The notes under the pieces: generated by a model | Told to the model about the DNA's origin: nothing | What the model saw: the letters and a program-made list of their open reading frames with translations, nothing else | Database searches by the model: none | Shown here: positions 1 to 62,254 of the stretch, one piece after another | How positions within the stretch are numbered: position 1 is the first letter of the stretch | Layout: the number at the start of each line of letters is the position of its first letter | Source of the DNA: Candidatus Daviesbacteria bacterium | Lineage (GTDB): Bacteria; Patescibacteriota; Microgenomatia; Daviesbacterales; UBA10151 | NCBI GenBank assembly: GCA_021731695.1 | Contig: JAKFWZ010000078.1 | Span: 25,073-89,072 of the forward strand | Length of the DNA: 64,000 nt | Direction of reading: 5' to 3' | Position numbers and translations under genes: made by a program

Positions 1-255
1 TATGGAATTTCAACAATTTCCTCAGCTGTCTCGGAAGGCCAGTTTATTGCCTTAGACTCTCTGGCATACCACCGGGGCCGGGAAAGCAACATAGTTGCAA
101 TTATAGTGCAAAGAGAGGTAGGATTAGCGTTAGGAAGATTTATTTTCCTGATTATTTTAGGATTATTGTTTTGGTTTGGATTACCTATAGCAGTAGTTTT
201 TGTGATTGCAGCTCTAACATCACTTCTAACCAGGCTTTATCCGGAAAAGATATAA
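1..255 (+). CDS. 3' end of a membrane-protein gene truncated by the window edge
   Basis: Frame-1 ORF runs from the window start to a TAA at 253-255. It has a hydrophobic C-terminus (...FIFLIILGLLFWFGLPIAVVFVIAALT...). Its stop abuts the ATG of the next gene. Confidence 0.3.
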   Translation, partial: YGISTISSAVSEGQFIALDSLAYHRGRESNIVAIIVQREVGLALGRFIFLIILGLLFWFGLPIAVVFVIAALTSLLTRLYPEKI

Positions 256-1020
256 ATGGAAATTTTAGGCTATATTTTATTTTTTACATTTTTAGGAAGT
301 ATGGGTTCCTTACTCGGAGGACTGGTTTTACTTAGGAGTAAGTCAATCGCCGAAAAAGTCTCGCACTATCTTTATTCGTATGCAGCGGGTGTTTTATTGG
401 GCACCGCATTTTTAGATCTGCTTCCTGAGGCAAGTGCCGAATCAGGAGATACAAATATTTTTCTTTGGACATTAGTCGGCATGCTTTCTTTTTTTCTTCT
501 GGTAAGATTTATTCATTGGTTTCATCATCATGATGATCACACGAAAGGGGGAACTGAATCGACAGTTCCTTTAATAATAATTGGTGATACAATTCATAAT
601 TTTATTGACGGGGTGGCAATTGCAGCAACATTTTTAGTCAGTATTCCCCTGGGGATTTTAACTACAATTGCGGTTGCAGTTCATGAGATTCCTCAGGAAA
701 TTGGTGATTTTGCAATTTTACTAAGAAAAGGGCTAAAGCGAAGTCGCGTTTTATGGATTAATATTTTAAGCGCCTGTGCTGCATTTGCAGGTGCAATTTT
801 AATGTTTTATCTTCAGGATTATCTTGAGGGGTCGCTGCCCATATTTCTGGCTTTAACTGCCGGATTTTTTATATATATCGCTTCATCAGACTTAATTCCT
901 GAAATCCATAAACAGGATAATCAGAGATTGGCATTTATTGAAAGTATATTATTGATTTTGGGGTCTGGTACGGTTTTTATTGTCGCAAAAGTTATAGAAA
1001 GTTTTGGTCTTCATGTCTGA
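256..1020 (+). CDS. ZIP family divalent-metal (Zn/Fe) permease
   Basis: Carries the HEIPQEIGDFAILL motif and a His-rich loop (HWFHHHDDH). It is a multi-TM hydrophobic protein, typical of ZupT/ZIP transporters. Confidence 0.75.
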   Translation: MEILGYILFFTFLGSMGSLLGGLVLLRSKSIAEKVSHYLYSYAAGVLLGTAFLDLLPEASAESGDTNIFLWTLVGMLSFFLLVRFIHWFHHHDDHTKGGTESTVPLIIIGDTIHNFIDGVAIAATFLVSIPLGILTTIAVAVHEIPQEIGDFAILLRKGLKRSRVLWINILSACAAFAGAILMFYLQDYLEGSLPIFLALTAGFFIYIASSDLIPEIHKQDNQRLAFIESILLILGSGTVFIVAKVIESFGLHV

Positions 1021-1552
1021 GCAGATAATTTCAGAAGTTGACGATAACGGTAAGTTTATAAAGTATATCCCCAGAATGTTGGGGCATACAGGAAATGGCA
1101 GAAGACATTTAGGAATAACAATTTTAGTTTATAACTCGGAGGGCCAGTTACTTCTTCAAAAAAGAAAACACATGGTGTTTGATAATGTTTGGTGTTTTAC
1201 TGCGGATACACATCCTTACAGACTTAGAAGCGGTGAAGCTGAAACTGTTGATGAAGCTTCAAAAAGAGCACTAAAAGAAGATTTTAATATTGAAAATATT
1301 TCTTTGGAAGATCTTGGATCATTTAATTATTTTGCGATTGATGGGAAGTATTGTGAGAATGAATACTGTGCAATGATGATTGGGGAGTATGATGGTGAAA
1401 TTAAAATGAACCCTGAAAATGGATATGATTTTGAATGGATGGATAAAAAAGATTTTATTAGAGACTTTAAAGAAAATCCGGATAAATGGGCGCCATGGGT
1501 TTTGGGCGGAATAGAAATATTAAAAGAAAAGGGATTTTTTGATGGAGTATGA
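1004..1552 (+). CDS. idi: Nudix hydrolase, type-1 isopentenyl-diphosphate delta-isomerase-like
   Basis: Nudix fold with an IDI-like core (ILVYNSEGQLLLQKRK...SGEAE...RALKEDFNI). It sits directly upstream of the mevalonate operon. Confidence 0.55.
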   Translation: MVFMSEQIISEVDDNGKFIKYIPRMLGHTGNGRRHLGITILVYNSEGQLLLQKRKHMVFDNVWCFTADTHPYRLRSGEAETVDEASKRALKEDFNIENISLEDLGSFNYFAIDGKYCENEYCAMMIGEYDGEIKMNPENGYDFEWMDKKDFIRDFKENPDKWAPWVLGGIEILKEKGFFDGV

Positions 1553-2078
1553 CGGCGAGCTCATTGATATTGTCAGTGAAAATAATGAAGTTATTGGAAA
1601 AGCTACAAGAGGAGAAGCTCACAGAAAAGGATTAATTCACCGGGCACTTTCTGTTTTAGTTATAAGCTCAAAAGGTGAGCTATTGCTTCAGCAAAGATCT
1701 GCAAGTAGATCAATTCATGCTCTCTCTTGGGATCTTTCAACCTCTGAACATGTTCAATCAGGTGAAGCATTTGAAAGTGCAGGAGAAAGATCTTTAAAAG
1801 AAGAGCTTGGAATCACTGCGAATGTTATTAAAGCCAGTAGTCCAAAATTGCAAAAAAGAGAATACCATTTGAAAAGCGAAATGGTTTATGAGAATGAGAT
1901 AGTTCTATCTTTAACAGCAAATCATGAAGGTCCTTTTAAACCAGATCCGAATGAAGTTGCACAGGTTAGTTTTTTTTCTGTTGATGAAATAGAAAAAATA
2001 ATTGAATCCGGAGAAAAATTTACACCTTGGTTTATTGACGAATGGGAGAATGTTAAATCGTTAATCGTTAATCGTTAA
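1539..2078 (+). CDS. Nudix hydrolase, second IDI-like paralog
   Basis: Region ALSVLVISSKGELLLQQRS...SGEAFESAGERSLKEELGI is paralogous to the preceding gene. Its last 6 codons and the stop are encoded by the heptamer tract. Confidence 0.5.
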   Translation: MMEYDGELIDIVSENNEVIGKATRGEAHRKGLIHRALSVLVISSKGELLLQQRSASRSIHALSWDLSTSEHVQSGEAFESAGERSLKEELGITANVIKASSPKLQKREYHLKSEMVYENEIVLSLTANHEGPFKPDPNEVAQVSFFSVDEIEKIIESGEKFTPWFIDEWENVKSLIVNR

Positions 2079-2128
2079 TCGTTAATCGTTAATCGTTAAT
2101 CGTTAATCGTTAATCGTTAATCGTTAAT
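2059..2128. repeat. Tandem heptamer (CGTTAAT) x10 with stop codons in all six frames, between convergent genes
   Basis: Ten perfect 7-nt units. TAA occurs in every + and - frame. The tract lies between the stops of the Nudix gene and mvaD. Confidence 0.9.
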
Positions 2129-2133
2129 CAGTT

Positions 2134-3111
2134 TTAGAATAAATGCTTATCTGAAAGTTTCGTCCCATCTCCCGGTTCGTTTATTATAATTTGTTTTACT
2201 TCAGGAATTTCTTTAAGTTTCTTTCCTAATTTTTTTACATCCCTCTTTTTAGTTATTAAATGAACATCCTGACCGGTGTTGACAGTAAAGTATACTGTGA
2301 GACCTTCATCCCGCCACTTTTTTGTAAGCTTCATGATTAAAAGCGAGTTAGGGTTCAAATAAATTAACGGTGGGTTTTGAGTCATATAAATCGAGTGGAG
2401 CTCTAATGCTTCCTGCTCAATAAATTCCCCTAATTTGGTAAAGTCTTTTTTCTCTATAATTCTTTTTAGTTCTTCGTTTTTCTTTTTCATTCTCGCAACT
2501 CTTAACTTGAGAAAAGGAGAAGAGTCGGCATTTTCCTGTCCCTCAGAAGTCGGGACTTCTTTTCGGTTTCTCGAAACAACGGCGACTACATCTGCGATAT
2601 CCCAATGATCTTTAGGAAAAATTGTTTTAGCGTAAGAAGTTTCACTTGTATCTCCGTCCATCCATTCTACAATTCCAGACGGAATTGATCTGCAAGATGA
2701 TCCAGATCCCTGGCGGGCTAAAATAGATAATTCTTTTTCAGATAAATTGAGAGCTGCTGCGCTAGCTGCTGCGACAGTCAAAGCAGCAAAACCAGAAGCG
2801 GATGATGATAAGCCGGTTCCGGTAGGGAAAGAATTAACTGAAATCACTTTTGCAAATGTTTCAATTCCGGCGAGGTTTCTGATCCGGTCTAAATGCTTTG
2901 AAACTTTTGCTGCTTCTGTATCAAGTTTTTCATTGTTTATTATTATATCATCTGCTTTTAATTTTTCATCAAACTGCACTGTTGTAGTTGTTAGTAAATT
3001 TGATAAAGTCATGGAAATTGAACCATTTATAGGAAGACGCAAAATTTCATCTTTGCGTCCCCAGTATTTTGTAAAAGCAATATTTGACGGCGCAATCGCA
3101 GTTGTTTTCAT
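2134..3111 (-). CDS. mvaD: Diphosphomevalonate decarboxylase (GHMP kinase superfamily)
   Basis: N-terminus is AIAPSNIAFTKYWGRKDE. Carries the GHMP ATP-binding motif PTGTGLSSSAS. Confidence 0.85.
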   Translation of the reverse strand: MKTTAIAPSNIAFTKYWGRKDEILRLPINGSISMTLSNLLTTTTVQFDEKLKADDIIINNEKLDTEAAKVSKHLDRIRNLAGIETFAKVISVNSFPTGTGLSSSASGFAALTVAAASAAALNLSEKELSILARQGSGSSCRSIPSGIVEWMDGDTSETSYAKTIFPKDHWDIADVVAVVSRNRKEVPTSEGQENADSSPFLKLRVARMKKKNEELKRIIEKKDFTKLGEFIEQEALELHSIYMTQNPPLIYLNPNSLLIMKLTKKWRDEGLTVYFTVNTGQDVHLITKKRDVKKLGKKLKEIPEVKQIIINEPGDGTKLSDKHLF

Positions 3112-4082
3112 TTTTCTATTCTAACTCCTTCTGCATTTACTTCAACTTTTAAAACTTGTCCGCCGACTTTTTTAATAGCATTTTCAATCGCAGATTTTTT
3201 TGATGGGGAAGTGAGAGCAATCATACAATCACCAACTCCAGCTCCTGATAATTTTGCACCAAACGCACCGGCATCTCTTGCGGCATTAATCATATCGTCC
3301 AATTTTTTAGAACTGACCCCTATTTTGAAAAGATGAGTCTGGTTTAGATTCATAAAATCGCCTGCCTTTTTGTAGTTTTCATCAACTAATGCATTTTTCC
3401 CAAGCATCACGACCTTTTCTATTTCGTTAAATATATGAGTATAAAATTCAGGCTTCTTCTTAATTTTTTCCTGAAGCTGTTTAACTATTGTGGGTGTATC
3501 CGCCTTAGTTCCTGAGTATCCAACTACAAGGGAAAAGTTTTTTAAATGAAGCGGCTTTATCGCTTTTCCGCCAGTTAGAAAATAGATGGTTCCGCCATAA
3601 ATGGCAGCGGCTATATCAAATCCTGAACCAACTCCGGCAATTTCCAGAACTGTCTTATACGATAAATCAAAAATTTCTTTGTTAGACAGATTTAAATTTG
3701 AAATTTCAGATAGTGCTTTAATTGCACAAACCGTAGAAGCAGAGGAGGAGCCAAATCCAAAAGTGGATTTAAAATCAGAAATTGTTTTAAATTTAAAGCC
3801 TGACTTTTGAGGATATTCTTTAATGAAATTTTTTAATGCAATCTCTGTAAATTTTGCTCCTTTTGGAATGTCGCCTTTGCCTAAATCAAAAATCTTTTTT
3901 TTGTAACCATCTATTCCAACATCTGGCGCATCTAATTCGAAATATGGTGCTTCAATAGTTGTTAGTTGAAGCTTCAGCCTTTGATCAACAGCAGTAACGA
4001 TACAAGGTCTATTGTAAACAACAGCATGTTCTCCAAAAAGCATTAATTTGCCGGGTGCTGAAACAGTAATTTGGTTTTTCAT
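3108..4082 (-). CDS. GHMP kinase, probable phosphomevalonate kinase (mevalonate-kinase-like)
   Basis: Motifs APGKLMLFGEHAVVY and GFGSSSAS. Overlaps its neighbours by 4 nt within the operon. Confidence 0.6.
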   Translation of the reverse strand: MKNQITVSAPGKLMLFGEHAVVYNRPCIVTAVDQRLKLQLTTIEAPYFELDAPDVGIDGYKKKIFDLGKGDIPKGAKFTEIALKNFIKEYPQKSGFKFKTISDFKSTFGFGSSSASTVCAIKALSEISNLNLSNKEIFDLSYKTVLEIAGVGSGFDIAAAIYGGTIYFLTGGKAIKPLHLKNFSLVVGYSGTKADTPTIVKQLQEKIKKKPEFYTHIFNEIEKVVMLGKNALVDENYKKAGDFMNLNQTHLFKIGVSSKKLDDMINAARDAGAFGAKLSGAGVGDCMIALTSPSKKSAIENAIKKVGGQVLKVEVNAEGVRIEK

Positions 4083-4996
4083 ATTGTGATTGAATAATAA
4101 TCGTATTTGTTTTTCTTTGCAAATTCTACTATGGTATTTGGATCTTCGTGAAAGGCTAAAATCATTCCCGAACCTTCTTTGATTCCACCAGCGCCAGATA
4201 TTTTTCCTGCTCCGCCTAGCGTTTCGATATTGTGAATAATCTGTTTAGCGGCCTCACCAACAACTCCAAGTTTTTCCAGATTTCTTTCAGCTTTTTTTAT
4301 TATTTTAATAAACTTCTCCTGATCTCCCTTTTTTAAAACTTTTGCCATTCGAGTTGCTAATGCTCCCTGGGATTGAAAAATACCAATTATTTCTGATTGC
4401 GACCTTGCATAATTATCTTTGACTAATTGAAGCATTTCAGCTGTTGTCTCAGCTGGTTTTCCTGAATTAATCAAAACCAGATTCGCTATCTCTTCCGGGA
4501 TTTTAAATCCAAGCGGTTTAATTTTATTTGTGGTCTTACCCTTTCTGAATAGAATAATTCCTGATTGTAAAACTGCGGCCAAATCTCCACCAGACGGATT
4601 GCCGTGAAATATTTTTTCTCCCTCGATAGCGATGTCAAAAATATCTTTTTCTGTATAATCAATTTTTAAAAACTTTAGTAAACAAATTGCAAAAGCTGAA
4701 GAAAGCGAGGCGGAAGTTCCGAGACCGGAGCCGACTGGTATTTGTGTTTTATCTATTTCTATTTTATACATGGGAATTTCCACCCCAAATTTTTCTTTGA
4801 TCTTTTTCTCAATAGAATTTTGCAATCTATAAATTGCATCATCATAATGAACAATCCCTAAAATTTCTTTAGTCTTTGATTTAGTTATTTTTGCTGAAAG
4901 ATATAAATTAACCGAAGCTAAAATTGCTGGTTTTCCGTATACAACACTATGCTCACCGATCAAATGAATTTTCCCTGGGATTGATATTTTAATCAT
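4079..4996 (-). CDS. mvk: Mevalonate kinase
   Basis: Motifs IPGKIHLIGEHSVVYG and PVGSGLGTSAS. The start was moved to the ATG at 4994-4996. The 5185 start in the ORF track is a TTG extension through a GC-rich structured element. Confidence 0.65.
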   Translation of the reverse strand: MIKISIPGKIHLIGEHSVVYGKPAILASVNLYLSAKITKSKTKEILGIVHYDDAIYRLQNSIEKKIKEKFGVEIPMYKIEIDKTQIPVGSGLGTSASLSSAFAICLLKFLKIDYTEKDIFDIAIEGEKIFHGNPSGGDLAAVLQSGIILFRKGKTTNKIKPLGFKIPEEIANLVLINSGKPAETTAEMLQLVKDNYARSQSEIIGIFQSQGALATRMAKVLKKGDQEKFIKIIKKAERNLEKLGVVGEAAKQIIHNIETLGGAGKISGAGGIKEGSGMILAFHEDPNTIVEFAKKNKYDYYSITI

Positions 4997-5130
4997 ATTA
5001 ATGAAGCACCACGGGCTTACGCCCGTGGTTTCTTCTAGCTTCAAGCGGCTAAGGTCGCTTGTCCTCACACTACGTGTTCGGAAAATCTTCATCCGCGAGC
5101 TAATGCTCGTGGTTTTAAGATTTGTCGCTA
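4997..5130 (+). ncRNA. GC-rich structured element A, a candidate small RNA or terminator cassette homologous to 11830-11935
   Basis: One hairpin is CCACGGGC-TTAC-GCCCGTGG followed by TTTCTTCT (5009-5036). A second is CGAGC-TAAT-GCTCG followed by TGGTTTT (5096-5117). The shared motif CTTCATCC..CGTGGTTTT is also present in element B. Confidence 0.3.
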
Positions 5131-5230
5131 TAAACCAATAACCCAATATAACAAATAAAGCCAATGTCCAATAAAGTCGCAACAAAAATAATTAGGAATT
5201 GGTTTATTGGGTTATTTATATATTGGTTTA
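5131..5230. repeat. Partial copy of the dyad CCAAT/ATTGG intergenic element
   Basis: Contains aaaccaataacccaat...ccaatgtccaat...aattggtttattgggttat...attggtttatt. It shares motifs with 7791-7915 and 50297-50425. Confidence 0.5.
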
Positions 5231-5581
5231 TTATTTTATGGCGGGCCTCACTTTAACTATATATTCAATAATTTCCGATGGATTAACTTTTTTACCTCTT
5301 CTTATAACAGTCACAACTTTTAAATTTGGTTTTAATGAAGATTCTTCACAATCAACAATTTGAGCTGGCATTTTTTCTCCGTTTTCAAATTCAACAATAC
5401 CAGAAATATACGGAATAAAATCTTCAAAGCCTAAAGGAGGTACTGAAATTTTTGTCCACACCAAAAGTTTACCCGTTCTATTAAGGTACTTATTTAAAGT
5501 TTTATGGTGTCTCCAGACTTGTGATGGGTTAGTCATTTTGTAATATATGTACGGCGACTGTTGCACCTGTTCCTCCGACAT
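5231..5581 (-). CDS. DUF35-type OB-fold protein, partner of the thiolase/HMG-CoA synthase pair
   Basis: 116-aa protein with a C-terminal OB-fold-like region. It lies immediately downstream of the thiolase and HMGCS genes, as in archaeal operons. The true start may be Met16 at about 5536. Confidence 0.5.
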   Translation of the reverse strand: MSEEQVQQSPYIYYKMTNPSQVWRHHKTLNKYLNRTGKLLVWTKISVPPLGFEDFIPYISGIVEFENGEKMPAQIVDCEESSLKPNLKVVTVIRRGKKVNPSEIIEYIVKVRPAIK

Positions 5582-6662
5582 TTTGCGTTAATCCGATTTT
5601 CGGATTCTTAATTTGTCGGTTTACCGCAGTGCCTTTTAATTGTTCATAAACTTCAATAATTTGTTTCACACCAGTTGCACCAACCGGGTGACCGCAGCCC
5701 TTAAGGCCTCCTGAGGTGTTAACTGGCAGATTGCCGCCAAGCTTTGTTATTCCGCTCTCAATAAATTTTCCGCCATCACCTTTTTTGCAAAACCCTAAGT
5801 CTTCCATTGCCAGAATTTCAGCGATTGTAAAACAATCATGCACTTCGAGTAAGTCAACTTCTTTTTGAGTAATGCCTGCTTGTTCGAAGGCTTTTTTAGA
5901 AGCCCTTATTGTTGCTGATATTTCATTCAAGTTTTTTCTTTCTGATAGTCCGACAGAATCACTTGCGACAGCACTGGCACTGATGTAGACATCTGATGGT
6001 TTGGAAGAGCTTAATACAACAGCAGCAGCCCCGTCAGTAATGGGTGATGAATCAAAAAGTGTTAAAGGGTCAGCGATCATTGAAGAATTCAAAACTTTAT
6101 CAACAGAAATTTCAAAAGAGTATTGGGCTTTAGGATTTAAAGAAGCATGATAGTGATTTTTTACTGCAACCGAAGCCAGCTGTTCTCTCGTTGTTCCATA
6201 TTTTTTCATATGAGATTTTGACATCAATGCATAAAGAGCGGGAAAAGTTAGACCGGATTGTCTCTCGGCTTCCGAGGCTGCTCCCATTAGAGCTGTACCG
6301 ATTTCTGAAGTTGATAAATCTGTCATTTTTTCAACACCAATAACTAAAACATTTTCATAAAGTCCGGATAAGACTCCGGTAACTGCCTGATGAACCGCAA
6401 CGCCCCCTGAAGCACAGGCTGCTTCAACATGAGCGCTCGATGTATTAATTCCGAGCTTTTGTGCAACAAGCGCCCCCAGATGATCCTGACCGCTGGCTTT
6501 TCCATATAACATGTTTCCGACAATCACTGCATCAATCTGACCTGCTTTTAATCCAGAATCTTTTAAAGCTTCTGATCCCGCATCATATGCCAGATCCAAA
6601 AGTCCTTTATCCCAAAGTTCGCCAAATTTTGTAATACCGGAACCAAGTATGTTTACTTTCAT
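5529..6662 (-). CDS. Acetyl-CoA C-acetyltransferase (archaeal-type thiolase)
   Basis: N-terminus MKVNILGSGITKFGE. Thiolase Cys motifs (VEAACASGG; CGHPVGATG). Confidence 0.8.
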   Translation of the reverse strand: MKVNILGSGITKFGELWDKGLLDLAYDAGSEALKDSGLKAGQIDAVIVGNMLYGKASGQDHLGALVAQKLGINTSSAHVEAACASGGVAVHQAVTGVLSGLYENVLVIGVEKMTDLSTSEIGTALMGAASEAERQSGLTFPALYALMSKSHMKKYGTTREQLASVAVKNHYHASLNPKAQYSFEISVDKVLNSSMIADPLTLFDSSPITDGAAAVVLSSSKPSDVYISASAVASDSVGLSERKNLNEISATIRASKKAFEQAGITQKEVDLLEVHDCFTIAEILAMEDLGFCKKGDGGKFIESGITKLGGNLPVNTSGGLKGCGHPVGATGVKQIIEVYEQLKGTAVNRQIKNPKIGLTQNVGGTGATVAVHILQND

Positions 6663-6674
6663 AATTTAAAATTT

Positions 6675-7772
6675 TTAAACGTACCCTTTCGACATTAATA
6701 TTTTTAGTAGATAAGAGTAGTTAATATATTCTTTATTTTTGATTTGATCTGCAACCTTTGTTTTTTTCTTCTTTTGATAAGCAGTGATTAGGGGAGTAGC
6801 TTCCAGGATAAAAGCGTCGGATCCGGCTCCTGATCCGTAACTACATAAAAATATTTTTTGGTTTGGTTTAGCGATATCTAAAACTGCAGCTAATCCTAAA
6901 AGAGAAGAGGCAGAGTAGGGGTTGCCGATATCCTCAACTTTAAAACCTGCTTCTAATTGTTCTTTTTTAAAGCCTAATTTTTTTGCCACCTCTTTTGGGA
7001 ACTTACTGTTTGGCATATGAAAAACAACATAATCAAAATCTGAGGGTTTCGTCTTGGTTTTTTCCATCAAATGAGTTGATGCACTCATTACATGAGTGAA
7101 ATACGCCGGATCTCCGGTGAATCTGCCTCCGTGTGAGGGAAATTTTTGTCCGTCGCGTCTCCAAAAATCCGGTGTATCGGATGAATAGGATGTTGATTCG
7201 ATTACATTGGCGATGACTTTCTTGCCGCTTCCTAAAACGGATCCTTCAGCTCCTTTTGGGTTCTTGCTAGTTGAATCGGAACCCAAAATAAAAGCGGCGG
7301 ACGCAGAAGCTGCCGTGTATTCTAAAGCATCCCCGGGTTTTGCTTGTGCAACATCGGACCCAATCACTAAACCGTATTTATTTTTCTTAAGTTCATCCAT
7401 CATGGAGATAAGCCTCATCGCTGCGGTTGCGGCTTTGCAGGCAAATTGAGTGTCGATAGCCAAATAGTTGTGCGGAAGACCCAATATTTCGCCAACGATA
7501 GTAGAAGTAGGTTTTACTGCATATGGGTGAGATTCTGAACCAACCGCTAAAGCTTTAATGTCGGCCAAGGGGATTTGACCAGATTCGATTGCAGCCATAC
7601 CTGCTTCGACAGCAAGTGTCGTGGCGTCCTCGTCCAGTGAAGCTACGGATTTTTCACTGAGCCCTAAACCTCTTTCGATTTCTCCGGCATTCTTATTCCA
7701 GAAATTCGCAATTTCAGAAATCTTAACGCGATATTTAGGAATGTAAGTTCCGTATGAAATTATTCCAATCAT
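6675..7772 (-). CDS. mvaS: Hydroxymethylglutaryl-CoA synthase (archaeal type)
   Basis: N-terminus MIGIISYGTYIPKYRV. Motifs FACKAAT and GSGAGSDAF. Confidence 0.8.
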   Translation of the reverse strand: MIGIISYGTYIPKYRVKISEIANFWNKNAGEIERGLGLSEKSVASLDEDATTLAVEAGMAAIESGQIPLADIKALAVGSESHPYAVKPTSTIVGEILGLPHNYLAIDTQFACKAATAAMRLISMMDELKKNKYGLVIGSDVAQAKPGDALEYTAASASAAFILGSDSTSKNPKGAEGSVLGSGKKVIANVIESTSYSSDTPDFWRRDGQKFPSHGGRFTGDPAYFTHVMSASTHLMEKTKTKPSDFDYVVFHMPNSKFPKEVAKKLGFKKEQLEAGFKVEDIGNPYSASSLLGLAAVLDIAKPNQKIFLCSYGSGAGSDAFILEATPLITAYQKKKKTKVADQIKNKEYINYSYLLKILMSKGYV

Positions 7773-7790
7773 GTTTAATATTTAATAAAC

Positions 7791-7915
7791 CAATAAACCA
7801 ATAAACCAATTTCAAATAAAATTGCCTTGGGACTTCGTCTAAAACCAATTCCCAATGCGCTCCAATCTTATTGAAATTTGTATATTTGACATTGGTTTAT
7901 TTGTATATTCTAGCG
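7791..7915. repeat. Dyad CCAAT/ATTGG intergenic element, copy 2
   Basis: Structure is (aaaccaat)x3, then gacttcgtctaaaaccaattcccaat, then tttgacattggtttatttg. The core is 24/26 identical to 50348-50373. The arms are inverted (aaaccaatgtcaa vs ttgacattggttt). Confidence 0.6.
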
Positions 7916-9055
7916 TCCTTTCCTTCCAAGTTTAACATGCGAACTTGCCAGGGTGCCTTCTGAAAGTGAAGCAAGTAGTGAGAGTTCGCCGGCTAAAACT
8001 GAAGCGGCTATAACTTCAGAAAATTCTAGCACATCTTGAGCACCAATTATATTTAGAGCCTCTTTTTGCGAAGGCAGATTGGTTCCTCCGCCGACGGTCC
8101 CAACCATTAAGGAGGGGAGATAGACAGAGAAATATAAATCACCTTTTTCTGTAACTTCTGCACTGGTTACTCCTAAACTTCCTTCAACAATTTGTCCCAG
8201 GTCCTGTCCCGTTGCAGCAAAAATTGCAGCAATTATATTTGCAAAATGTGCATTAAATCCAATAGATCCGGCCATTGCCGAACCCGTTAGAACTTTTCTA
8301 TAAACTAAGTCAGCTATTTTTTCAGGTGTGGTTTTTAAAATCTCGCGAACGACAGATTTTTTAAGTGTGCAATCTGCCCAAACCATTTTTCCCCGACCTT
8401 CTATAAAATTCAGCCAAGCCGGTTTTTTATCAATATCATAATTTCCTGAAATAGAAATGCAACTTGATCCGGTATTTTTTTCAATAAACGGGATAACATC
8501 AGTAACAGCGATAGTTGCCATATTCATTCCCATTGCGTCTTTTGAATCAAAAGAAAATCTCACAAATAAATTTTTCCCTGCAAGGCTGGAAGTGATTGTA
8601 TTAAGTTTTAAATGAGAAGAGGTGCTTTCGCAAATCTTGGCAATTTTTCCGAAATTTCTCCCCAACCATTTTTTTATTTCAAAAGAGTGAGTGATGCCAC
8701 GGGTTTTAAAAACCGGACTTCTGGTTACACCAACATTTTGGATTTCGACAGAAGCTCCTCCTGAAAGAGCTACGGCTTTGCAGCCTCTTGAAACGGAAGC
8801 AACTAAAGCGCCTTCTGTTGTGGCGAGGGGAATGTAATATTTGCGCGTGGCTTGTGGCGCGTGGCGAATGGAAATTGGACCTGCAATTCCCAGAGGAATC
8901 TGAACAGAACCGATTAAGTTTTCAATATTTTTACCATTTACAGATTCCTCTGAAAAGTTAAAACCGGAAATTGCATTAAGATTTATTTTAAGCTCTGATT
9001 CTAAAAAATCTTTCCTACTCGCAGCTGTTTTAAAATCGCGAAGACTTTTGCTCAT
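7910..9055 (-). CDS. mvaA: HMG-CoA reductase
   Basis: Motifs ENLIGSVQIPLGIAGP, DAMGMNM and GTVGGGT. Confidence 0.85.
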   Translation of the reverse strand: MSKSLRDFKTAASRKDFLESELKINLNAISGFNFSEESVNGKNIENLIGSVQIPLGIAGPISIRHAPQATRKYYIPLATTEGALVASVSRGCKAVALSGGASVEIQNVGVTRSPVFKTRGITHSFEIKKWLGRNFGKIAKICESTSSHLKLNTITSSLAGKNLFVRFSFDSKDAMGMNMATIAVTDVIPFIEKNTGSSCISISGNYDIDKKPAWLNFIEGRGKMVWADCTLKKSVVREILKTTPEKIADLVYRKVLTGSAMAGSIGFNAHFANIIAAIFAATGQDLGQIVEGSLGVTSAEVTEKGDLYFSVYLPSLMVGTVGGGTNLPSQKEALNIIGAQDVLEFSEVIAASVLAGELSLLASLSEGTLASSHVKLGRKGR

Positions 9056-11829: not shown

Positions 11830-11935
11830 ACTCCTCTTCGCTTCGCCCGTAGTTTCTCTTCCTGCCCGCCTTCGGCGGGATTCGCCTACCGGCGAAGCAA
11901 ACTTCATCCAGGACGCACATCCGTGGTTTTCGTTT
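11830..11935 (+). ncRNA. GC-rich structured element B, a candidate sRNA or terminator homologous to element A
   Basis: Outer stem gcttcgcc/ggcgaagc encloses a cccgcc-TTCG-ggcggg tetraloop hairpin. Then comes CTTCATCC and a weak hairpin plus CGTGGTTTT. Confidence 0.3.
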
Positions 11936-30807: not shown

Positions 30808-31020
30808 ATGCAGATGAAATTAAATGCAAAACAACTTCGTAATTCGTTATTAGTTAAGTCGTTAAAAAACAAAACGAAAAACGAAACAACGAAAAACGAG
30901 ATCTATATAATCTTAGACAATATTGTAGACACTTATAATATTGGTGCGATTTTCAGGCTGGCTGATGCAGTTGCAACTAAAAAAGCTTACCCTTGGGGAA
31001 AAATGGATTATTCTTCCTAG
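30808..31020 (+). pseudogene. Orphan 5' fragment of a SpoU/TrmH methyltransferase gene, about 88% identical to 31792-31965
   Basis: Encodes MKLNAKQLRNSLLVKSLKNKTKNETTKNEIYIILDNIVDTYNIGAIFRLADA, then diverges and stops. It is interrupted by the TA module. Confidence 0.65.
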
Positions 31021-31789: not shown

Positions 31790-32332
31790 ATGAAACTTAA
31801 TGCAAAACAACTTCGTAATTCGTTATTCGCTAAGTCGCTGAAAAAGAAAACGAAAAACGAAACAACGAAAAACGAAATTTATATTGTTTTAGATAATATT
31901 CTGGACACTTATAATATTGGTGCGATTTTCAGGCTGGCTGATGCTATTGCCGCAAAAAAAGTTATGATTTGTGGTGATTCAGAAATTCCGCCAAACCACA
32001 GAATTAAAAAAGCCTCAATTAATACTACAGAAGTTGTGGACTGGAGCTATTCAGAAACAACGGCTGAGGCCATAAAAAATTTGCGTAAAACTGTTTCAGG
32101 GATTCAAATTGTAGCTATAGAGCAGGCGGAAAATTCAATTCGTTATGATGAATTTGAATATAAATTTCCGATAGCTTTAATCGTGGGGCATGAAACCGAC
32201 GGTATTTCTAAAGAGGTTTTGGATGAGTGCGATGGGATTGTAGAAATGCCAATGTATGGAATAAATATCAGTTTAAATGTAATGGTTTCACTGGCGATTG
32301 TTCTGTATAAAGCACTGGAGAAAATTCAGTAA
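31790..32332 (+). CDS. SpoU/TrmH-class RNA 2'-O-methyltransferase
   Basis: Motifs IVLDNILDTYNIGAIFRLADA and IVGHETDGIS. Confidence 0.7.
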   Translation: MKLNAKQLRNSLFAKSLKKKTKNETTKNEIYIVLDNILDTYNIGAIFRLADAIAAKKVMICGDSEIPPNHRIKKASINTTEVVDWSYSETTAEAIKNLRKTVSGIQIVAIEQAENSIRYDEFEYKFPIALIVGHETDGISKEVLDECDGIVEMPMYGINISLNVMVSLAIVLYKALEKIQ

Positions 32333-35790: not shown

Positions 35791-35997
35791 CATAGCTTGC
35801 GAGCCTCTGTTAAAATCTACTTTACCTTTAAATCCATGAGGATTAGGTTAGACTGGAGAAAGTTTCTATCAAGTAATACTACTTACAGTTGAATATTTAG
35901 TTATGGGTAATGAGTTATGAGTGATGAGTTTTCTCGTAACACATAACTCAAAGCAAGCCATAAGGCTAGCGCACTCATCACTAAAAAGCACCTTAAC

Positions 35998-36031: not shown

Positions 36032-36341
36032 CTTGCGTAAAAGTAGGAAAAAGACCTGTCGATACTATCTAACCGGATAGCTTCGACTCCAAAAGAGTGG
36101 TGGGAAAAAACACGATCAATTAAATGATTGTGAGACAAGAGTATAAGTTTCATGAAAGTGAAGCCAAGCTCTGTCAATTCCAAATTTTAGTAAGCAAAGC
36201 TTGCGATAGTTCCGGCTAACGCCGTGTAACTATCTAAGTAATACTTACTTCGAAAACAATAAATCGAAATTTCACTTTCACAAGTGATACAGCGTTTTAG
36301 AGTTGGAAAAACTTTTTAAGTGTTTTAAAAACACTTTATTT

Positions 36342-36384
<43 letters not shown>

Positions 36385-36589
36385 TAAGCATGCAAGTCGA
36401 ACGATCTGTAGCAATACAGGTAGTGGCGGACGGTCGAGTAACGCGTGGGGATCTGCCTTAAAGTTGGACATAGCTCATCGAAAGGTGGGGTAATTTCCAA
36501 TGTGAACGTAAGTTCAAAGCCGCAAGGCGCTTTAAGATGAACCCGCGTCCTATCAGCTAGTTGGTGGGGTAAAAGCCTACCAAGGCATC

Positions 36590-36621
<32 letters not shown>

Positions 36622-37159
36622 GGAATAGCACTGAGACACGGGCTATACATCTACGGATGGCAGCAACTGGGAATCTTGCGCAATGGGGGAAACCCTGACG
36701 CAGCGACGCCGCGTGGAGGATTGAAGGCCCTCGGGTTGTAAACTCCTTTTGACTGGGAAGATTATGACTGTACCAGTAGAATAAGCACCTGCTAACTACG
36801 TGCCAGAAGCCTCGGTAATACGTAGGGTGCAAGCGTTATCCGGATTTATTGGGCGTAAAGTGTTGCGTAGGCTGATTTGCGCATTTTGTTTAAAAGGCTA
36901 AGGCTTAACCTTAGTTTTGGGCAAAATATGGCAAATCTTGATGGTTTAAGAGGGTACTGGAACTTAACATGTAGCAGTGAAATGCGTTGATATGTTAAGG
37001 AACACCAAAGGCGTAGGCAGGTACCTGGGAAACTCATGACGCTGAGGCACGACAGCTAGGGGAGCGAAGCAGATTAGAGACCTGCGTAGTCCTAGCCGTA
37101 AACGATGAATGCTAGTTAGTCCCTCTTTTGGGACCGACGTAAGGTAACCCGTTAAGCAT

Positions 37160-37210
<51 letters not shown>

Positions 37211-37671
37211 AGGCGCACAAGCAGTGGAGCATGTGGTTTAATTCGATACAAAGCGAAAAACCTCACCAGGGTTTGACATGTAGTTGCTAAGCCTAAGAAA
37301 CTAGGCCTCCTTCGAGGGTACTACACAGATGGTGCATGGCTGTCGTCAGCTCGTGGCGTGAGCTGTACCGTTAAGTCGGGTAACGAGCGCAACCCGCATC
37401 GTATGTTAAATAATTCATACGAAACAGCCCCAATTTTTGGGGAGGAAGGCGCGGATGACGTCAAGTCAGCACGCCTCTTACACCCTGGGCTACACACATC
37501 CTACAATGGCGAATAACAACGAGTTGCAAGCCGGTAACGGCAAGCTAATCTCTAAAATTTCGCCCCAGTTCAGATTGAGGGCTGCAATTTGCCCTCATGA
37601 AGTCGGAATTGCTAGTAATCGCGAATCAGCAGGTCGCGGTGAATACGTTCTCGCCTCTTGTACACACCGCC

Positions 37672-38603
37672 TTATAGTATTTAACATAATGCTATAAAAA
37701 AACGCGCGTGGCAGCGTAAATATCTAGTTGGTTAAAGTCCAACCTATACTTAATAGTAGTCAAAAAAATTTGGCAGATCCGATAGAGTAATTTATCGATT
37801 TGGAGGGCCTGAGACAAATAGCAGTCCTCAGATAAAAAAATCTTTTAATAAGTGATCTCAGCCGGGCGGTTTGAGAGAAATTTAACGATTAGGAAAAGAT
37901 TTTTGAGGAATGTTAGGAATAGATATTAACGTGACCCATGGAGATCCTACTGGGAAGAAGGTAATTGCCCAGAGGAAGTCAGCAGATTCATAGTAGGTAT
38001 TATTGACATTTGGGTTAGATTCGGGTTAATCTGAATTTATACCAAATAAATACTGAAGGGATCTACGAAATGTTAACACCAGACTATATTGTTGGTTTAA
38101 CCGATGGAGAAGGCTGTTTTCTGGTTCAGATAAGAACCGATTGTCGAATAGTCTTGAGATATTTTATTACACAACGTTTTGATAATGTCGAACTTTTAAA
38201 CAAAGTTTATGGCTTTTTCAAAATAGGCTATGTATATCGAAAATTTCAGGGAAATGACAAAAAGAAAATGACCTTTGTCTATGAGGTAACGAAACAAAAC
38301 GATATTCAAAATGTGATTATTCCTTTCTTTAGGAAATATCCATTAGAAGGTATCAAAAATGAGTCTTTTAGAAGGTTTGCCCGTATTGCTGAGATTGTAA
38401 AAAATCGACAGGATACACGTAAATTATCTGAAGATGAATTAAAAGAAGTCTGGCATTTGAAGCTCTCTATGAATTCTCTTCATAATGAGCCAAAGGATCG
38501 TCTGAGCGGAGCTCGTAATGATCCCAGAAACATTTCGGCTCGCTTAGTGCCGGAAATCGGCTCGCTAAGTGGGAACGGAAAACAACCTTAAGTTATTCCA
38601 ATC
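37672..38603 (+). mobile_element. Self-splicing intron (probably group I) in 16S near E. coli position 1400, carrying a homing-endonuclease ORF
   Basis: Insertion between ACACCGCC and CGTCA. Contains the LAGLIDADG ORF. Boundaries are good to about 2 nt. Confidence 0.65.
38070..38591 (+). CDS. LAGLIDADG homing endonuclease (intron-encoded)
   Basis: Motif YIVGLTDGEGCF. It lies inside the 16S insertion. Confidence 0.75.
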   Translation: MLTPDYIVGLTDGEGCFLVQIRTDCRIVLRYFITQRFDNVELLNKVYGFFKIGYVYRKFQGNDKKKMTFVYEVTKQNDIQNVIIPFFRKYPLEGIKNESFRRFARIAEIVKNRQDTRKLSEDELKEVWHLKLSMNSLHNEPKDRLSGARNDPRNISARLVPEIGSLSGNGKQP

Positions 38604-52754: not shown

Positions 52755-53885
52755 ATGTTAAGTGTTTTAAGCGAATTCTTAAGTAGAAAATTCACTCCTT
52801 TAAATTTAATTACAATATCAAAATCCAGGCTAATCCAGAATTACGAAAGCTTGAGCAAAATTAATCCGGAAATAAAAGTTGCACCGGTTTTAAAATCAAA
52901 TGCTTATGGTCACGGGATAAAACTCGCGGGTAAAATTCTTGATGAAGTTGACGCACCGTTTTTATGCGTAGATTCCTTATACGAAGCCTTTCAGTTAAGA
53001 ACTCACGCCAAAGTAAAAACTCCTATTTTGATTATGGGTTATATTCATCCGGAAAGCTTAAAGATAAAACAGCTTCCTTTTTCTTTTGCTGTTTACGATC
53101 TGGAGCATGTAAAAGCTTTGAATAAGTATCAGGAAAAAGCCCGGGTTCATATCTTTGTCGATACAGGAATGCACAGAGAGGGAATTGATTTGGATAATCT
53201 TGAGGAATTTTTAGAAAGACTAAAAAAACTTGAAAATATTGAAGTCGAAGGCTTGATGTCGCATCTTGCAGAAGCATCAAAACCAGAGTCTCTATTAACT
53301 AAAAAGCAGATAGAAAATTTTGCAAAAGCTAAAGAGATAGTTTTAAAGAAGGGCTTTAAGCCAAAATGGTTTCATATTGGCGGAACTTACGGACTTTTGA
53401 ACAATTTAGCTGCCGGATGTAATTTAGTCCGGATTGGCAGAGCTGTTTACGGGATAGAAGAAAAAGGGGTGGCGGGAATAAATCTCGAACCTGCTTTAAA
53501 ACTGACTACAACTTTGGTTCAGATAAAAAAAGTTAAAAAGGAGGAAAAGATTGGTTATAGCGGAACTTTTACAGCAGATAAAAATATGAGCATAGGGATT
53601 TTGCCATTAGGCTATAACGAAGGTGTAGACCGGAGGCTTTCAGATAAGGGGGTGGTGCTGATTGACGGTATTAAATGTCCCATTGTCGGGCTTGTTAGTA
53701 TGAATATCACGACTATTGATATATCGAACGTAAAAAGACCTGTTTTGGGGCAGGAAGTGGTTGTTTTTTCGGATAATGATGAAGATCCAAACTCTTTAAT
53801 TAAAGCCTGTAAAGCCGGAGGAATTTTGCCGCATGAGATGTTAATTCATATCGCAGAATCAACCAAGAGAGTTATTATTTCCTAG
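52755..53885 (+). CDS. alr: Alanine racemase
   Basis: PLP motif VLKSNAYGHG. C-terminal barrel region. Confidence 0.8.
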   Translation: MLSVLSEFLSRKFTPLNLITISKSRLIQNYESLSKINPEIKVAPVLKSNAYGHGIKLAGKILDEVDAPFLCVDSLYEAFQLRTHAKVKTPILIMGYIHPESLKIKQLPFSFAVYDLEHVKALNKYQEKARVHIFVDTGMHREGIDLDNLEEFLERLKKLENIEVEGLMSHLAEASKPESLLTKKQIENFAKAKEIVLKKGFKPKWFHIGGTYGLLNNLAAGCNLVRIGRAVYGIEEKGVAGINLEPALKLTTTLVQIKKVKKEEKIGYSGTFTADKNMSIGILPLGYNEGVDRRLSDKGVVLIDGIKCPIVGLVSMNITTIDISNVKRPVLGQEVVVFSDNDEDPNSLIKACKAGGILPHEMLIHIAESTKRVIIS

Positions 53886-53953
53886 TGATTAGTGATTAGT
53901 GATTAGTGATTAGTGATTAGTGATTAGTGATTAGTGATTAGTGATTAGTGATT
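53883..53953. repeat. Tandem heptamer (TAGTGAT) x10 with six-frame stops, between convergent genes
   Basis: The first unit supplies the alr TAG stop. The minus-strand neighbour has its TAA stop at 53945-53947, inside the tract. Confidence 0.9.
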
Positions 53954-54487
53954 TAGGGAGTTGAGGGCTTGGTTAAATTTACCGTTTGATTCGATCCTGA
54001 CCTTTAAAACTTTTATTGCGCCAATCTCTCCGTTTCTGTCGCTTGCGATAATAAGTTGATATGAATCAGGGATTGTTTCTGTCGGGATCTGAAAACTGAA
54101 ATTTCCTTCATAATCCGGAGTTATGCCATGCTTTAATCCATCCGGTGCCAGCCATATTTGAAGTGTTGTGCCGGCAGTAGTTGTCCCGCTGATAAAATCG
54201 CCCTGTTTCATTAAATATTGCCTATCAGGATCAAGAGAATCAATCGCGTAATTGTTGGGTTGGACAGCCAGATATTTTTGATAGAGAGGAATTCTTAAAA
54301 ACCAAATTAAAACAAGAATGCCGATAATTTCTGTGATAATTAGCGGAAAGATAAGTTTTTTTCGTTTAGCGCGGGTTAAACCGAATTGATAAGTAATAGC
54401 ATTCATATAAATTTGACGGTAGACGATTGAAGATGGAAGATTGTGGGAGATGGTAGAGAATGGAAAGTAGATAAAATCTATCTTCAA
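53945..54487 (-). CDS. Anchored hypothetical protein
   Basis: TM helix ILVLIWFLRIPLY followed by a soluble domain. Confidence 0.4.
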   Translation of the reverse strand: MKIDFIYFPFSTISHNLPSSIVYRQIYMNAITYQFGLTRAKRKKLIFPLIITEIIGILVLIWFLRIPLYQKYLAVQPNNYAIDSLDPDRQYLMKQGDFISGTTTAGTTLQIWLAPDGLKHGITPDYEGNFSFQIPTETIPDSYQLIIASDRNGEIGAIKVLKVRIESNGKFNQALNSLNH

Positions 54488-54539
54488 TTTTCTATCATCA
54501 AAATACTATCCTCCATTTTCTACCGTCTATAGTCTAAGA

Positions 54540-54842
54540 TTAATTCCCCTCAAGTGCTCTCTGTATTTCTTCAGGAGTTAGGTCTTCAGGATCGCTATTA
54601 ATGGTTTCACAATCTGCGTTATAAGGGTCATTGCATGCAGTATCATCCTCAACCGGATCGGAGACTGGAATAGGGGAAACCGGAATTTTACCGTCACCAA
54701 TTTTAATTACCCCCGTTCCGATCAATGCAAGAGTTGTGGCTAAAATAAGTCCAATCATAGTTAAAACCGCAAGAGCAGAAAAACCTCTGAAAGTGATGAG
54801 TGATGAGTGATGAGTGATGAGTCGGGCAGATTTTTTTATCAT
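54540..54842 (-). CDS. Small single-pass protein with acidic C-x8-C tail and a (GTGATGA)x4 tract in codons 8-17
   Basis: ATGA overlap with the upstream gene. Codons 8-17 (LITHHSSLIT) are encoded by the heptamers. C-terminal motif ACNDPYNADC. Confidence 0.45.
   Translation of the reverse strand: MIKKSARLITHHSSLITFRGFSALAVLTMIGLILATTLALIGTGVIKIGDGKIPVSPIPVSDPVEDDTACNDPYNADCETINSDPEDLTPEEIQRALEGN
54793..54820. repeat. Heptamer tract (GTGATGA) x4 inside the 5' coding region
   Basis: Four perfect units. One unit is 7 nt, not a multiple of 3. Confidence 0.85.
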
Positions 54843-61790: not shown

Positions 61791-61862
61791 GGGCCCGTAG
61801 TTCACCGGTAGAACGCTTCATTTGCAATGAAGATGCAGGAGGTTCGACTCCTCTCGGGTCCA
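61791..61862 (+). tRNA. tRNA-Ala (UGC)
   Basis: GGGCCCGTAGTTCACCGGTAGAACG, anticodon loop tTTGCAa and T-arm GGTTCGACTCC. Confidence 0.85.
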
Positions 61863-62254
61863 CAGGTTTAATGATTAAAGAATGATGATTAAGGATTAAT
61901 GAATAAAATCATTAATCGTAAATCTTTAATCACTAATCAATCTTTTTTTGACTTGGATATGGATTTTTGACGAAGAATAGTTGAAAGTCCATATCCGGGC
62001 CGAAGATATGGCTTTAATTCTATTAATTCCCACTAGGGAAAGAGGAATAAAGTTTAAGTCCTTGGAGTTTGTACTTTGAAATGTGAATACGACATAAATG
62101 AAGAGCAATCAGCTCTCAGTCAACAGTCGTCAGCCAATCGCAAGAAAAGCTGAAGTCTGAAAGCTGAAGTCTGAAAGCTCTTTTATGAGAAGGCCAATAA
62201 GGGTCAGATTTAACATCTGATCCATGAGCGTCGTCGAGACGCTCAAAATAGTCA

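Follow-up and report, generated by a model that had tools for sequence, protein, structure and literature searches.

Ten-copy heptanucleotide arrays at two convergent gene junctions of a Candidatus Daviesbacteria contig: probable in-place expansions within a known class of period-7 repeats

In a contig of a Candidatus Daviesbacteria bacterium (assembly GCA_021731695.1, contig JAKFWZ010000078.1), two perfect tandem arrays of seven-nucleotide units, each of about ten copies, are located between the 3′ ends of convergent genes. The whole stretch of DNA that was analyzed, referred to here as the window, is 64,000 nt long and has a G+C content of 38.8%. The two tracts are most readily explained, at a probability of roughly 0.6, as lineage-specific, in-place expansions of heptanucleotide simple repeats, produced by slippage or misalignment and filtered by selection, and the arrays are probably without a dedicated function of their own. 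Heptamer arrays at junctions constitute an already known class of repeats; the clade-wide cassettes of the same period, which lie in frame at orthologous sites of conserved proteins, represent the novel lead of this work. The arrays and the genes that they separate are as follows.

2056–2129, no strand assigned: array 1, (CGTTAAT)×10; the Nudix gene has its last 7 codons and its stop here, and 5 nt separate the array from the mvaD stop.
53883–53953, no strand assigned: array 2, (TAGTGAT)×10.1; alr takes its stop TAG from the first unit, and 8 nt in from the opposite end the array contains the TAA of the convergent gene.
1539–2078, plus strand: Nudix-family gene (Pfam), the second of two tandem copies.
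2134–3111, minus strand: diphosphomevalonate decarboxylase gene (mvaD; Pfam), with an intact C-terminus (...SDKHLF before the stop).
52755–53885, plus strand: alanine racemase gene (alr; Pfam), whose stop TAG belongs to the first unit of array 2.
53945–54406, minus strand: gene of a conserved small membrane protein, convergent with alr; its probable start is the ATG at 54406, and the mechanical open reading frame (ORF) extends to 54487.

Both arrays are real and perfect, as the original prediction, an earlier reading of the sequence, had stated; this was established by direct reading, by Tandem Repeats Finder (TRF), and by our own scan. In array 1, the period of 7 holds without error over 2056–2129, corresponding to 10.6 copies (TRF unit AATCGTT; direct reading and TRF), within which CGTTAAT can be read directly in exactly 10 copies at 2059–2128, and TRF reports array 2 as 10.1 perfect copies of TAGTGAT at 53883–53953. 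An exact-run scan of the window detected more than one long perfect array at period 7 only, and the degenerate 14-mer or dimer GTKAWTMGTKAWTM has 19 matches in the window, against 0.07 expected from shuffles. A heptamer array is one cycle of 7 codons common to all three reading frames, as 7 is not divisible by 3, so that a stop triplet in the unit closes all three frames of its strand. Translation of the two arrays yields 3–8 stop codons in each of the six frames, in agreement with the six-frame stops claimed earlier. The probability that a random unit of this composition carries stops on both strands was computed as 0.20, and the chance that both long units do so is about 0.04.

The gene ends also agree with the earlier description of the arrays as lying between convergent genes (Nudix and mvaD; alr and the membrane-protein gene) and supplying or adjoining their stops. 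The third repeat unit of array 1 supplies the TAA of the Nudix ORF, which ends in KSLIVNR, and the array-encoded C-terminal tail SLIVNR stands where the relative L120 has RVLREKN, each followed by the stop. On the other side, the mvaD stop occupies 2134–2136 on the minus strand, 5 nt past the last full unit. The membrane-protein gene at 53945–54406, which has an ortholog in the relative L206, ends in SLNH, and its TAA is located within array 2. The nearest named relatives of the mvaD and alr proteins belong to Candidatus Daviesbacteria, the Microgenomates group, and Patescibacteria, which points to a Microgenomates-type member of the candidate phyla radiation. Array 1 closes a mevalonate-pathway cluster whose gene order is shared with relatives, and from its place in this cluster the Nudix gene at 1539–2078 probably encodes a type 1 isopentenyl diphosphate (IPP) isomerase. 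The cluster, at 1–9055 of the window, contains an archaeal-style trio of thiolase, HMG-CoA synthase, and OB-fold (DUF35-like) protein, two GHMP kinases, mvaD, and the two tandem Nudix (IPP-isomerase-like) genes; some relatives have a third Nudix gene or a fused kinase. The alr homologs examined (P0121–P0166) vary from 368 to 424 amino acids, with insertions at a few fixed loops, such as the DKGEGLRVKEKDL-type and the DKHSLSDNADKHSLRSDD-type after RAVYGI, and these loop insertions look like translated short-period repeats.

Comparison with orthologous junctions indicates where the arrays came from. In relatives whose mvaD is 77–79% identical, the Nudix/mvaD junction is an 8-nt gap in L120 and a 52-nt gap with a small hairpin in L121, and in L122–125 the two genes overlap by 23 nt; no heptamer array is present at this junction in any of these contigs. 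The genes at the alr junction overlap by 20 nt in L206 (79% identity) and by 4 nt in L207 (71%), again with no heptamer array in either. Of the seven other convergent junctions in the window, five lie between −23 and +73 nt in length, and two are longer, at 209 and 233 nt. As neighboring and orthologous convergent junctions are mostly of near-zero length, the arrays have added about 60–80 nt. The left edge of array 1, GTTAAAT, is part of conserved ENVK codons, and the right edge of array 2 fades through the degenerate units TAGGGAG and TTGAGGG into the C-terminal codons of the convergent minus-strand gene. Neither terminal inverted repeats nor target duplications were found at the two arrays. 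Their absence in relatives, together with edges that grade into the local coding sequence, points to lineage-specific expansion in place and not to mobile elements; judged from the sequence, the arrays would be recent local products of this lineage, expanded from local seeds. The original prediction had taken absence of the arrays from orthologous junctions of close relatives as speaking against it. Such absence was found at both junctions, and it counts against a conserved function at the junction, not against the reality of the arrays.

The common feature of these repeats is the period. Periodic segments were counted with one lag-autocorrelation detector, applied alike to the window, to shuffles of it, to Escherichia coli, and to 86 related contigs of the candidate phyla radiation (CPR) totaling about 0.9 Mb. 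The window contains 6 segments at lag 7, 6 at lag 14, and 0–1 at any other lag; its shuffles contain none at lag 7 and about none at lag 14 and the others, and 100 kb of E. coli K-12 yields no periodic segment at any period from 4 to 15. The related contigs contain 90 segments at lag 7 and 29 at lag 14, compared with at most 7 at any other lag from 4 to 18. When the window and the related contigs are taken together with lags up to 35, the counts are 97 at lag 7, 35 at lag 14, 5 at lag 21, and 4 at lag 28, the last two being no more frequent than other lags. Nearly all lag-14 segments overlap lag-7 segments and represent dimers of two diverged heptamers, that is, higher-order repeats. Across the CPR clade, the density of 7-periodic segments is about one per 10 kb, and most of them are translated. 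The lag-7 excess in both the window and its relatives upholds the assignment of the arrays to a genome-wide repeat class and extends it to the clade. The idea of a single 7-mer sequence family, in contrast, did not survive: 65 canonical units are found among 91 distinct periodic segments, and the proposed family cGT[GT]A[AT]T is ruled out by this diversity, as the period and not the motif defines the class. Even the two long units, aligned in whichever of the 14 rotations and strands suits best, agree at only 4 of 7 positions, a similarity estimated, not computed, to be at chance level. Some units do recur at several sites, for example, variants of ATTAACG and ATCACT(A/C).

The further sites named in the original prediction proved to be 7- or 14-periodic as well (54792–54822, 58704–58756, 61436–61472, 35899–35932, and 61864–61941). 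The repeat features of the window outside the two junctions are listed below.

54792–54822, minus strand: perfect (AGTGATG)×4.4, in frame as codons 8–17 of a 100-aa membrane protein (MIKKSARLITHHSSLITFRG...).
58704–58807, minus strand: inverted degenerate heptamer pair (GTTNATC-type, A-rich loop, GAATAAC-type) in the first ~35 codons of a 790-aa membrane protein.
61436–61515, minus strand: inverted degenerate heptamer pair of the kind at 58704–58807, in the first ~35 codons of a 493-aa membrane protein.
31808–31877, plus strand: inverted degenerate pair (TTCGTAA-type / AAAACGA-type) in the N-terminal extension of a SpoU/TrmH-like methyltransferase (assigned by motif).
35899–35990, no strand assigned: degenerate heptamer/14-mer array (AGTTATG/AGTGATG) with inverted partners at 35933–35950 and 35973–35987, about 400 nt upstream of the 16S gene.
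61864–61941, no strand assigned: inverted degenerate pair (TTAATGA-type / TCATTAA-type) with 30-nt arms that are 83% complementary, between a tRNA gene and the 23S gene.

Several of these sites lie in coding sequence and show how stops are dealt with there. The unit AGTGATG at 54792 equals TAGTGAT freed of its stop by a one-base change, and the N-terminal tail of the 100-aa protein that contains it is variable in the L206 and L207 orthologs. In the GAATAAC units near 58.7 kb, TAA is changed to TCA and CAA in exactly the two units in which it would fall in frame, and such stop-avoiding substitutions are the signature of a stop-containing repeat kept in a coding frame. The pair at 58704–58807 folds as RNA with −34.5 kcal/mol (z=−3.3). 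Hairpin-forming inverted pairs comprise the sites at 58704–58807, 61436–61515, 31808–31877, 35899–35990, and 61864–61941, in addition to octamer pairs; these inverted array pairs have their period and layout in common and no conserved sequence. In L146 and L195, the orthologous SpoU-like methyltransferase has heptamer units at this position too, but different ones.

Additional observations concern the surroundings of these sites. A truncated duplicate of the 5′ part of the methyltransferase gene (30816–31017, matching 31790–32332) lies about 1 kb upstream of the intact gene and includes a copy of the heptamer extension at 30834–30899. The octamer pairs (AATAAACC / GGTTTATT) at 5126–5243 and 7784–7909 occupy two co-directional spacers of the mevalonate operon and represent a second, rarer period in the same hairpin layout, with a perfect (AATAAACC)×3.4 at 7784–7810. 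A long imperfect hairpin of period-14 degenerate units is found on the minus strand at 54410–54545 (−42.9 kcal/mol, z=−7.3), between the gene of the 100-aa membrane protein and the probable ATG at 54406 of the next gene. The 16S (36336–37743) and 23S (from 62260 on to 64000) rRNA genes are unlinked, about 25 kb apart, and the 16S match covers only 1408 nt, against a model of 1533 positions. Ahead of the 23S gene stand a tRNA gene (61791–61862) and repeat hairpins, and the pair at 61864–61941 is followed by (AAAGCTGAAGTCTG)×2.4 at 62146–62179.

The in-frame occurrence of period-7 repeats is widespread in the clade: 64 of the 90 periodic segments in the related contigs lie in frame within long ORFs, at recurrent orthologous sites, with a unit that differs by lineage. 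One such site is a loop of HMG-CoA reductase (HMGR), delimited by IPLGxAGPL and PLATTEG, which in the window takes the following form.

8831–8872, minus strand: HMGR cassette, CGCCACG-like, lag-7 match 0.57, encoding the loop SIRHAPQATRKYYI between IPLGIAGPI and PLATTEG.

Perfect arrays are present in this loop in L121 (TCCAAAT ×4.3), L131 (AACTACG ×4.4), and L147 (AGCGAAA ×4.4), and most other lineages, the window included, have degenerate heptamer or 14-mer periodicity, while the length of the loop is steady at 13–14 aa. Over 18 distinct orthologs, the mean lag-7 match is 0.58 in the loop compared with 0.24 in flanking coding windows, and a match of at least 0.5 is reached by 14 of 18 loops and by 0 of 108 flanking windows (Mann–Whitney p=5e-8). 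Comparable 7-periodic cassettes are located in a GHMP kinase (15 aa in 7 of 8 lineages), in thiolase (10 aa in 14 of 14 lineages), in a further conserved protein with a SYNC...YAH motif, and in N-terminal tails of membrane proteins. At least nine relatives have a thiolase in which INDSRLTINDI is encoded by ATTAACG (CGTTAAT read on the opposite strand), with TAA changed to TCA where it falls in frame. Examples from relatives include L121 3968–3997, L131 3633–3663 and 7615–7646, and L147 3695–3725 and 8187–8218, as well as L136 8004–8039, L135 6936–6967, and L166 3700–3721 (range L120–L205). In L142, L153, L162, L189, and L195, the HMGR loop measures 20–35 aa and consists of small palindromes (e.g., CACCTCGAAGG...CCTTCGAGGTG), in some relatives a perfect one in place of a direct array, or of a hairpin-like insert inside an AGAGTCA array, which suggests in-frame insertion or template switching at the cassette.

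One pair of contigs permits a comparison of alleles. L135 and L136 otherwise differ at only 4 positions in about 11 kb, but they diverge by about 15% over an 850-nt tract (L135 1571–2424) that covers the GHMP kinase gene, and this divergence indicates a recombination import. The cassette of L136 is a perfect (AGTATCA)×5, while that of L135 has the same length and six substitutions; the difference is located inside the generally divergent recombined tract.

Similar arrays are distributed well beyond this clade. When one genome per species was scanned for runs of four GTKAWTM units, at least 119 contigs matched, and the matches listed span Saprospiraceae and other Bacteroidota, cyanobacteria, Chloroflexota, Ignavibacteria, gamma- and other proteobacteria, Nitrospirota, CPR lineages, and one DPANN archaeon. 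Isolate genomes are among the matches listed, for example, Pseudochryseolinea flava with (GTTAATC)×12.7, as are complete chromosomes with heptamer arrays, namely, those of Methylomicrobium and Petroclostridium. Within 8-kb stretches of the 119 contigs listed, 222 arrays of period 7 were counted, against at most 7 of any other period, and a BLAST search of the window against these contigs gave no match. In the listed contigs of diverse phyla, an array of at least four copies is present at 18 of 87 convergent, 35 of 311 co-directional, and 3 of 57 divergent junctions; the preference for convergent junctions that the original prediction had proposed to look for was therefore found (convergent versus divergent, Fisher p=0.014), and a second tally gave 25 convergent against 5 divergent (binomial p=0.0003). 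This preference fits avoidance of promoter regions as well as any positive role. Stops on both strands occur in 0 of 20 in-ORF arrays and in about 40–54% of intergenic arrays of the other phyla, among the contigs listed. Many public contigs end in 53–55 nt of heptamer array (L015 1–55, L047 1206–1260, L048 1–55, L090 5093–5145, and L101 4006–4060), and the L206 contig ends in 32 nt of it (11899–11930). As contigs end in such arrays, heptamer arrays break short-read assemblies, which is of practical consequence, and long ones are under-represented inside contigs.

The view that the arrays have no obvious described counterpart could not be maintained, as heptanucleotide arrays have already been described as LSSR5-11 (long simple sequence repeats with units of 5–11 nt), as cyanobacterial short tandemly repeated repetitive (STRR) sequences, as TAACTGA and GGGAATC repeats, and as GTGATTA in Helicobacter pylori. 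In most bacterial genomes, no class of long simple repeats is more abundant than that with heptanucleotide units, for which an origin by polymerase slippage has been proposed (Mrazek et al. 2007, as related in PMC4679880 and PMC4692102). According to the same two accounts, LSSR5-11 are mostly not tied to pathogen antigen genes, and their units vary by locus. The present arrays share with LSSR5-11, as so portrayed, head-to-tail copies of 7-nt units beyond chance (10.6 and 10.1), an excess of period 7 far above the neighboring periods, and a locus-specific origin with unshared units. They differ in setting, as LSSR5-11 appear in these accounts as mainly intergenic and as features of free-living bacteria with large genomes, whereas the present segments come from a CPR lineage with small genomes, and 64 of 90 are in-frame parts of genes.

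Among individual families, the TAACTGA direct repeats found in Beggiatoaceae, cyanobacteria, and Bacteroidetes form arrays of as many as 43 copies, mixed with other heptamers (MacGregor 2015, PMC4679880). Close relatives lack them at orthologous intergenic positions, the stops in the unit restrict their overlap with the ends of coding sequences, and 7-nt-step indels are known in Cyanothece strains (PMC4679880). The junction arrays resemble them in being stop-rich heptamers that are absent from the orthologous spacers of relatives. TAACTGA, however, has its stops on one strand and lies mostly just upstream of starts, whereas the junction units have stops on two strands and lie at 3′ ends between convergent genes. 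The TAACTGA dimer TAACTGATAACTGA does not occur in the window, even with one mismatch allowed, and membership in this family was rejected because the unit is absent and the two long arrays are flanked by stops of convergent genes, not placed before start codons. Three heptamers are repeated in Calothrix, and the H. pylori unit GTGATTA is a rotation of TAGTGAT. The STRR heptamers of heterocystous cyanobacteria and the GGGAATC / GGGGA(T/C)T repeats of Xanthomonas and Nostoc (Rehm 2015, PMC4692102) are likewise dispersed intergenic heptamers with copy numbers that differ between relatives and with some inverted pairs between convergent genes; their units are G-rich and G-quadruplex-capable, in contrast to the AT-rich, stop-rich, and diverse units found here, the comparison with STRR being drawn from their published description. 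In neuO, 5′-AAGACTC-3′ repeats in the 5′ coding region vary from 3 to 53 perfect copies and mediate ON/OFF switching (PMC13001214); in-frame repeats with a unit not divisible by three are known from single cases such as this one. The sites at 54792, 58704, 61436, and 31808 are similar to neuO in that heptamers are translated in frame at the 5′ end, with seven residues per three units, but its counterparts here are either degenerate or about 4 copies long, avoid stops, and in some cases lie in essential enzymes, and no length variation was seen in them. Borg repeats are perfect, occur between genes and in ORFs, are A-rich and flanked by partial repeats, and have been attributed to replication errors; inside ORFs, all are divisible by three and their position is rarely conserved (PMC9879509). 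Perfect tandem repeats both between and within genes of uncultivated organisms are common to Borgs and the present lineage, while the latter differs in its 7-nt unit, in keeping the frame through total length, and in having the same sites periodic in deeply diverged orthologs. Descriptions of 7-nt cassettes at orthologous sites of essential or housekeeping enzymes were not found in the literature, the coverage of this search being incomplete.

The explanation favored here, in-place expansion filtered by selection, may be outlined as follows. Slippage or misalignment with a sharp 7-nt offset, with 14 nt as a higher-order unit, would turn unconstrained DNA 7-periodic. Within genes, the survivors would be short, stop-free, frame-preserving cassettes in tolerant loops and N-terminal tails. 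At convergent junctions, long growth would be permitted only if neither frame is extended or destroyed, which would favor units with stops on both strands in all six frames, and there, with length unlimited, arrays could grow to ten copies and beyond. The most plausible reading of the six-frame stops is as a condition for survival between two abutting genes, and the arrays themselves would be neutral. The constant length of the coding cassettes could arise either from cycles of +21 and −21 nt, in which only repeats expand while anything can be deleted, so that the repeat comes to fill the tolerant segment, or from length-preserving, templated misalignment at a 7-nt offset. The role of selection as a filter is supported by the absence of two-strand stops from all 20 in-ORF arrays, by the altered TAA of the in-frame units near 58.7 kb, and by the change of TAA to TCA in thiolase. 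Several points weigh against this explanation. Hypermutability, one of two characters that the original prediction offered for the class, is conjectural for the ten-copy arrays, look-ups of mvaD and of the protein P0001 yielded no second contig of the strain, and short arrays of 3–5 copies are identical in same-species contigs from different samples (L122–125, L133/134, L166/167, and L135/136 outside the recombined tract), so that slippage is not fast at the consensus level. Plain slippage also leaves unexplained both the sharp preference for 7 over 5, 6, and 8 and the constant 13–14 aa loop with lineage-by-lineage replacement of the unit. Moreover, the near-equal lengths of the arrays (71 and 74 nt) could reflect an assembly ceiling, and the two six-frame-stop units would equally fit positive selection for stops.

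One alternative, a dedicated period-7 process that rewrites unconstrained DNA into heptamer arrays at constant length, would refine rather than exclude in-place expansion and can be advanced tentatively. The candidate agent is a property of the replicase or repair set of the lineage, such as transient misalignment at a 7-nt offset or the loss of exonucleases that normally suppress template switching. Such a process would account for 7-periodicity that persists at the same protein sites while the flanks are only 55–79% identical, each lineage having its own units and some arrays being 100% pure, and for the constant loop lengths (13–14 aa in HMGR, 15 aa in GHMP kinase, and 10 aa in thiolase). 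Inverted repeats in the same loops (L189, L195, L142, L153, and L162) are also a template-switch product. The perfect (AGTATCA)×5 of L136, next to an L135 allele of equal length with six substitutions, would suit rewriting, but this difference falls within a recombined tract of ~15% divergence and is not a clean hotspot; templated substitutions are hypothetical here, and ±21-nt expansion and contraction under length selection could yield the same picture. In its general form, this alternative possibly describes a process of fixed 7-nt register that homogenizes unconstrained DNA at constant length in Microgenomates-type CPR, and probably more widely, with the junction arrays as its unconstrained end-state. 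The HMGR, thiolase, GHMP kinase, SYNC...YAH protein, and SpoU-like methyltransferase segments might then stay periodic over very deep divergence while their units, and with them the peptides, turn over lineage by lineage. A selected role at the junctions, either as bidirectional ribosome-stopping insulators or as 3′ RNA structures that end or stabilize plus-strand transcripts, is improbable. It would agree with the low chance (about 0.04) of two six-frame-stop units, with the convergent-junction enrichment among the listed contigs of other phyla, and with the folding of the plus-strand RNA through G·U pairs, at −27.8 kcal/mol (z=−8.2) for (UAGUGAU)10 and −14.7 kcal/mol (z=−4.7) for (CGUUAAU)10, the plus strand being the sense strand of the upstream gene at both arrays. 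Relatives, however, need no spacer at either junction and obtain their stops from the genes' own codons, and the minus-strand transcripts are nearly structureless. An intrinsic terminator was rejected, as the array hairpins consist of A·U and G·U pairs with a mismatch every 7 nt and no U-run, and no terminator-like sites (hairpin plus T-run) are present in 1800–2400 or 53650–54250. An RNA hairpin as a general property of such arrays was rejected as well: in 78 arrays of other phyla, the units do not differ from shuffled ones in self-folding energy, and stability favors the sense strand 17 times and the antisense strand 19 times in 48 co-directional contexts (p=0.87; contigs listed).

Phase variation that tunes the flanking genes, in the manner of the 5′ coding heptamers of neuO or the promoter heptamers of hmw1A/hmw2A, is still harder to reconcile with the data. 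Ten perfect copies are long enough to slip appreciably (neuO with 21 repeats produces 7% variants in culture; PMC13001214), and three membrane-protein genes of the window have heptamers in their first ~35 codons, where a change of one unit would shift the frame. At both junctions, nevertheless, a switch would have nothing to act on, as the short tail and the stop stay the same whatever the number of copies, and the neighboring genes have housekeeping roles (IPP isomerase-like, mvaD, and alr). The arrays in 5′ coding regions are degenerate or reach only 4.4 copies, arrays of same-species contigs do not differ in length, and ON/OFF switching is implausible for essential enzymes with orthologous cassettes, such as HMGR and thiolase. 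Very unlikely, too, is an origin from mobile elements, whether as insertions of elements resembling miniature inverted-repeat transposable elements (MITE) or repetitive extragenic palindromes (REP) or as insertion and excision footprints of a transposon with 7-bp target duplications. The equality of period and target-site duplication length has been raised for TAACTGA repeats (PMC4679880), the hairpin-forming inverted pairs resemble small palindromic elements, and small palindromic inserts are found in the HMGR cassette of some relatives. The units nonetheless vary by site, the edges grade into local coding sequence, and no terminal sequence is common to the arrays; 14-nt units of two diverged heptamers indicate unequal slippage and not footprints, and the very wide phyletic spread of the period-7 preference among the listed contigs argues for a general cause. 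A MITE/REP-like element was rejected on the grounds that the pure arrays have no inverted termini, their units are site-specific, and their edges are locally seeded. Least probable of all is that the arrays or their copy number were made by the assembler: the near-equal lengths of 71 and 74 nt lie below a typical read length and arrays elsewhere disturb assembly at contig ends, but the arrays fit the reading frames on both sides, in-frame cassettes keep the ORFs of conserved enzymes intact, and equivalent arrays are found in independent NCBI, ENA, JGI, and Logan assemblies and in isolate genomes.

In-place expansion of simple heptanucleotide repeats places the two junction tracts within a known, poorly understood repeat class, and this membership removes the claim of a new element. 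If length-preserving misalignment at a 7-nt offset were true, it would make it possible to approach by measurement why heptamers prevail among the long repeats of bacteria, which is so far unexplained. In that case, mutation bias, not selection, would write the sequences of protein loops, which would represent a new mode of loop evolution.

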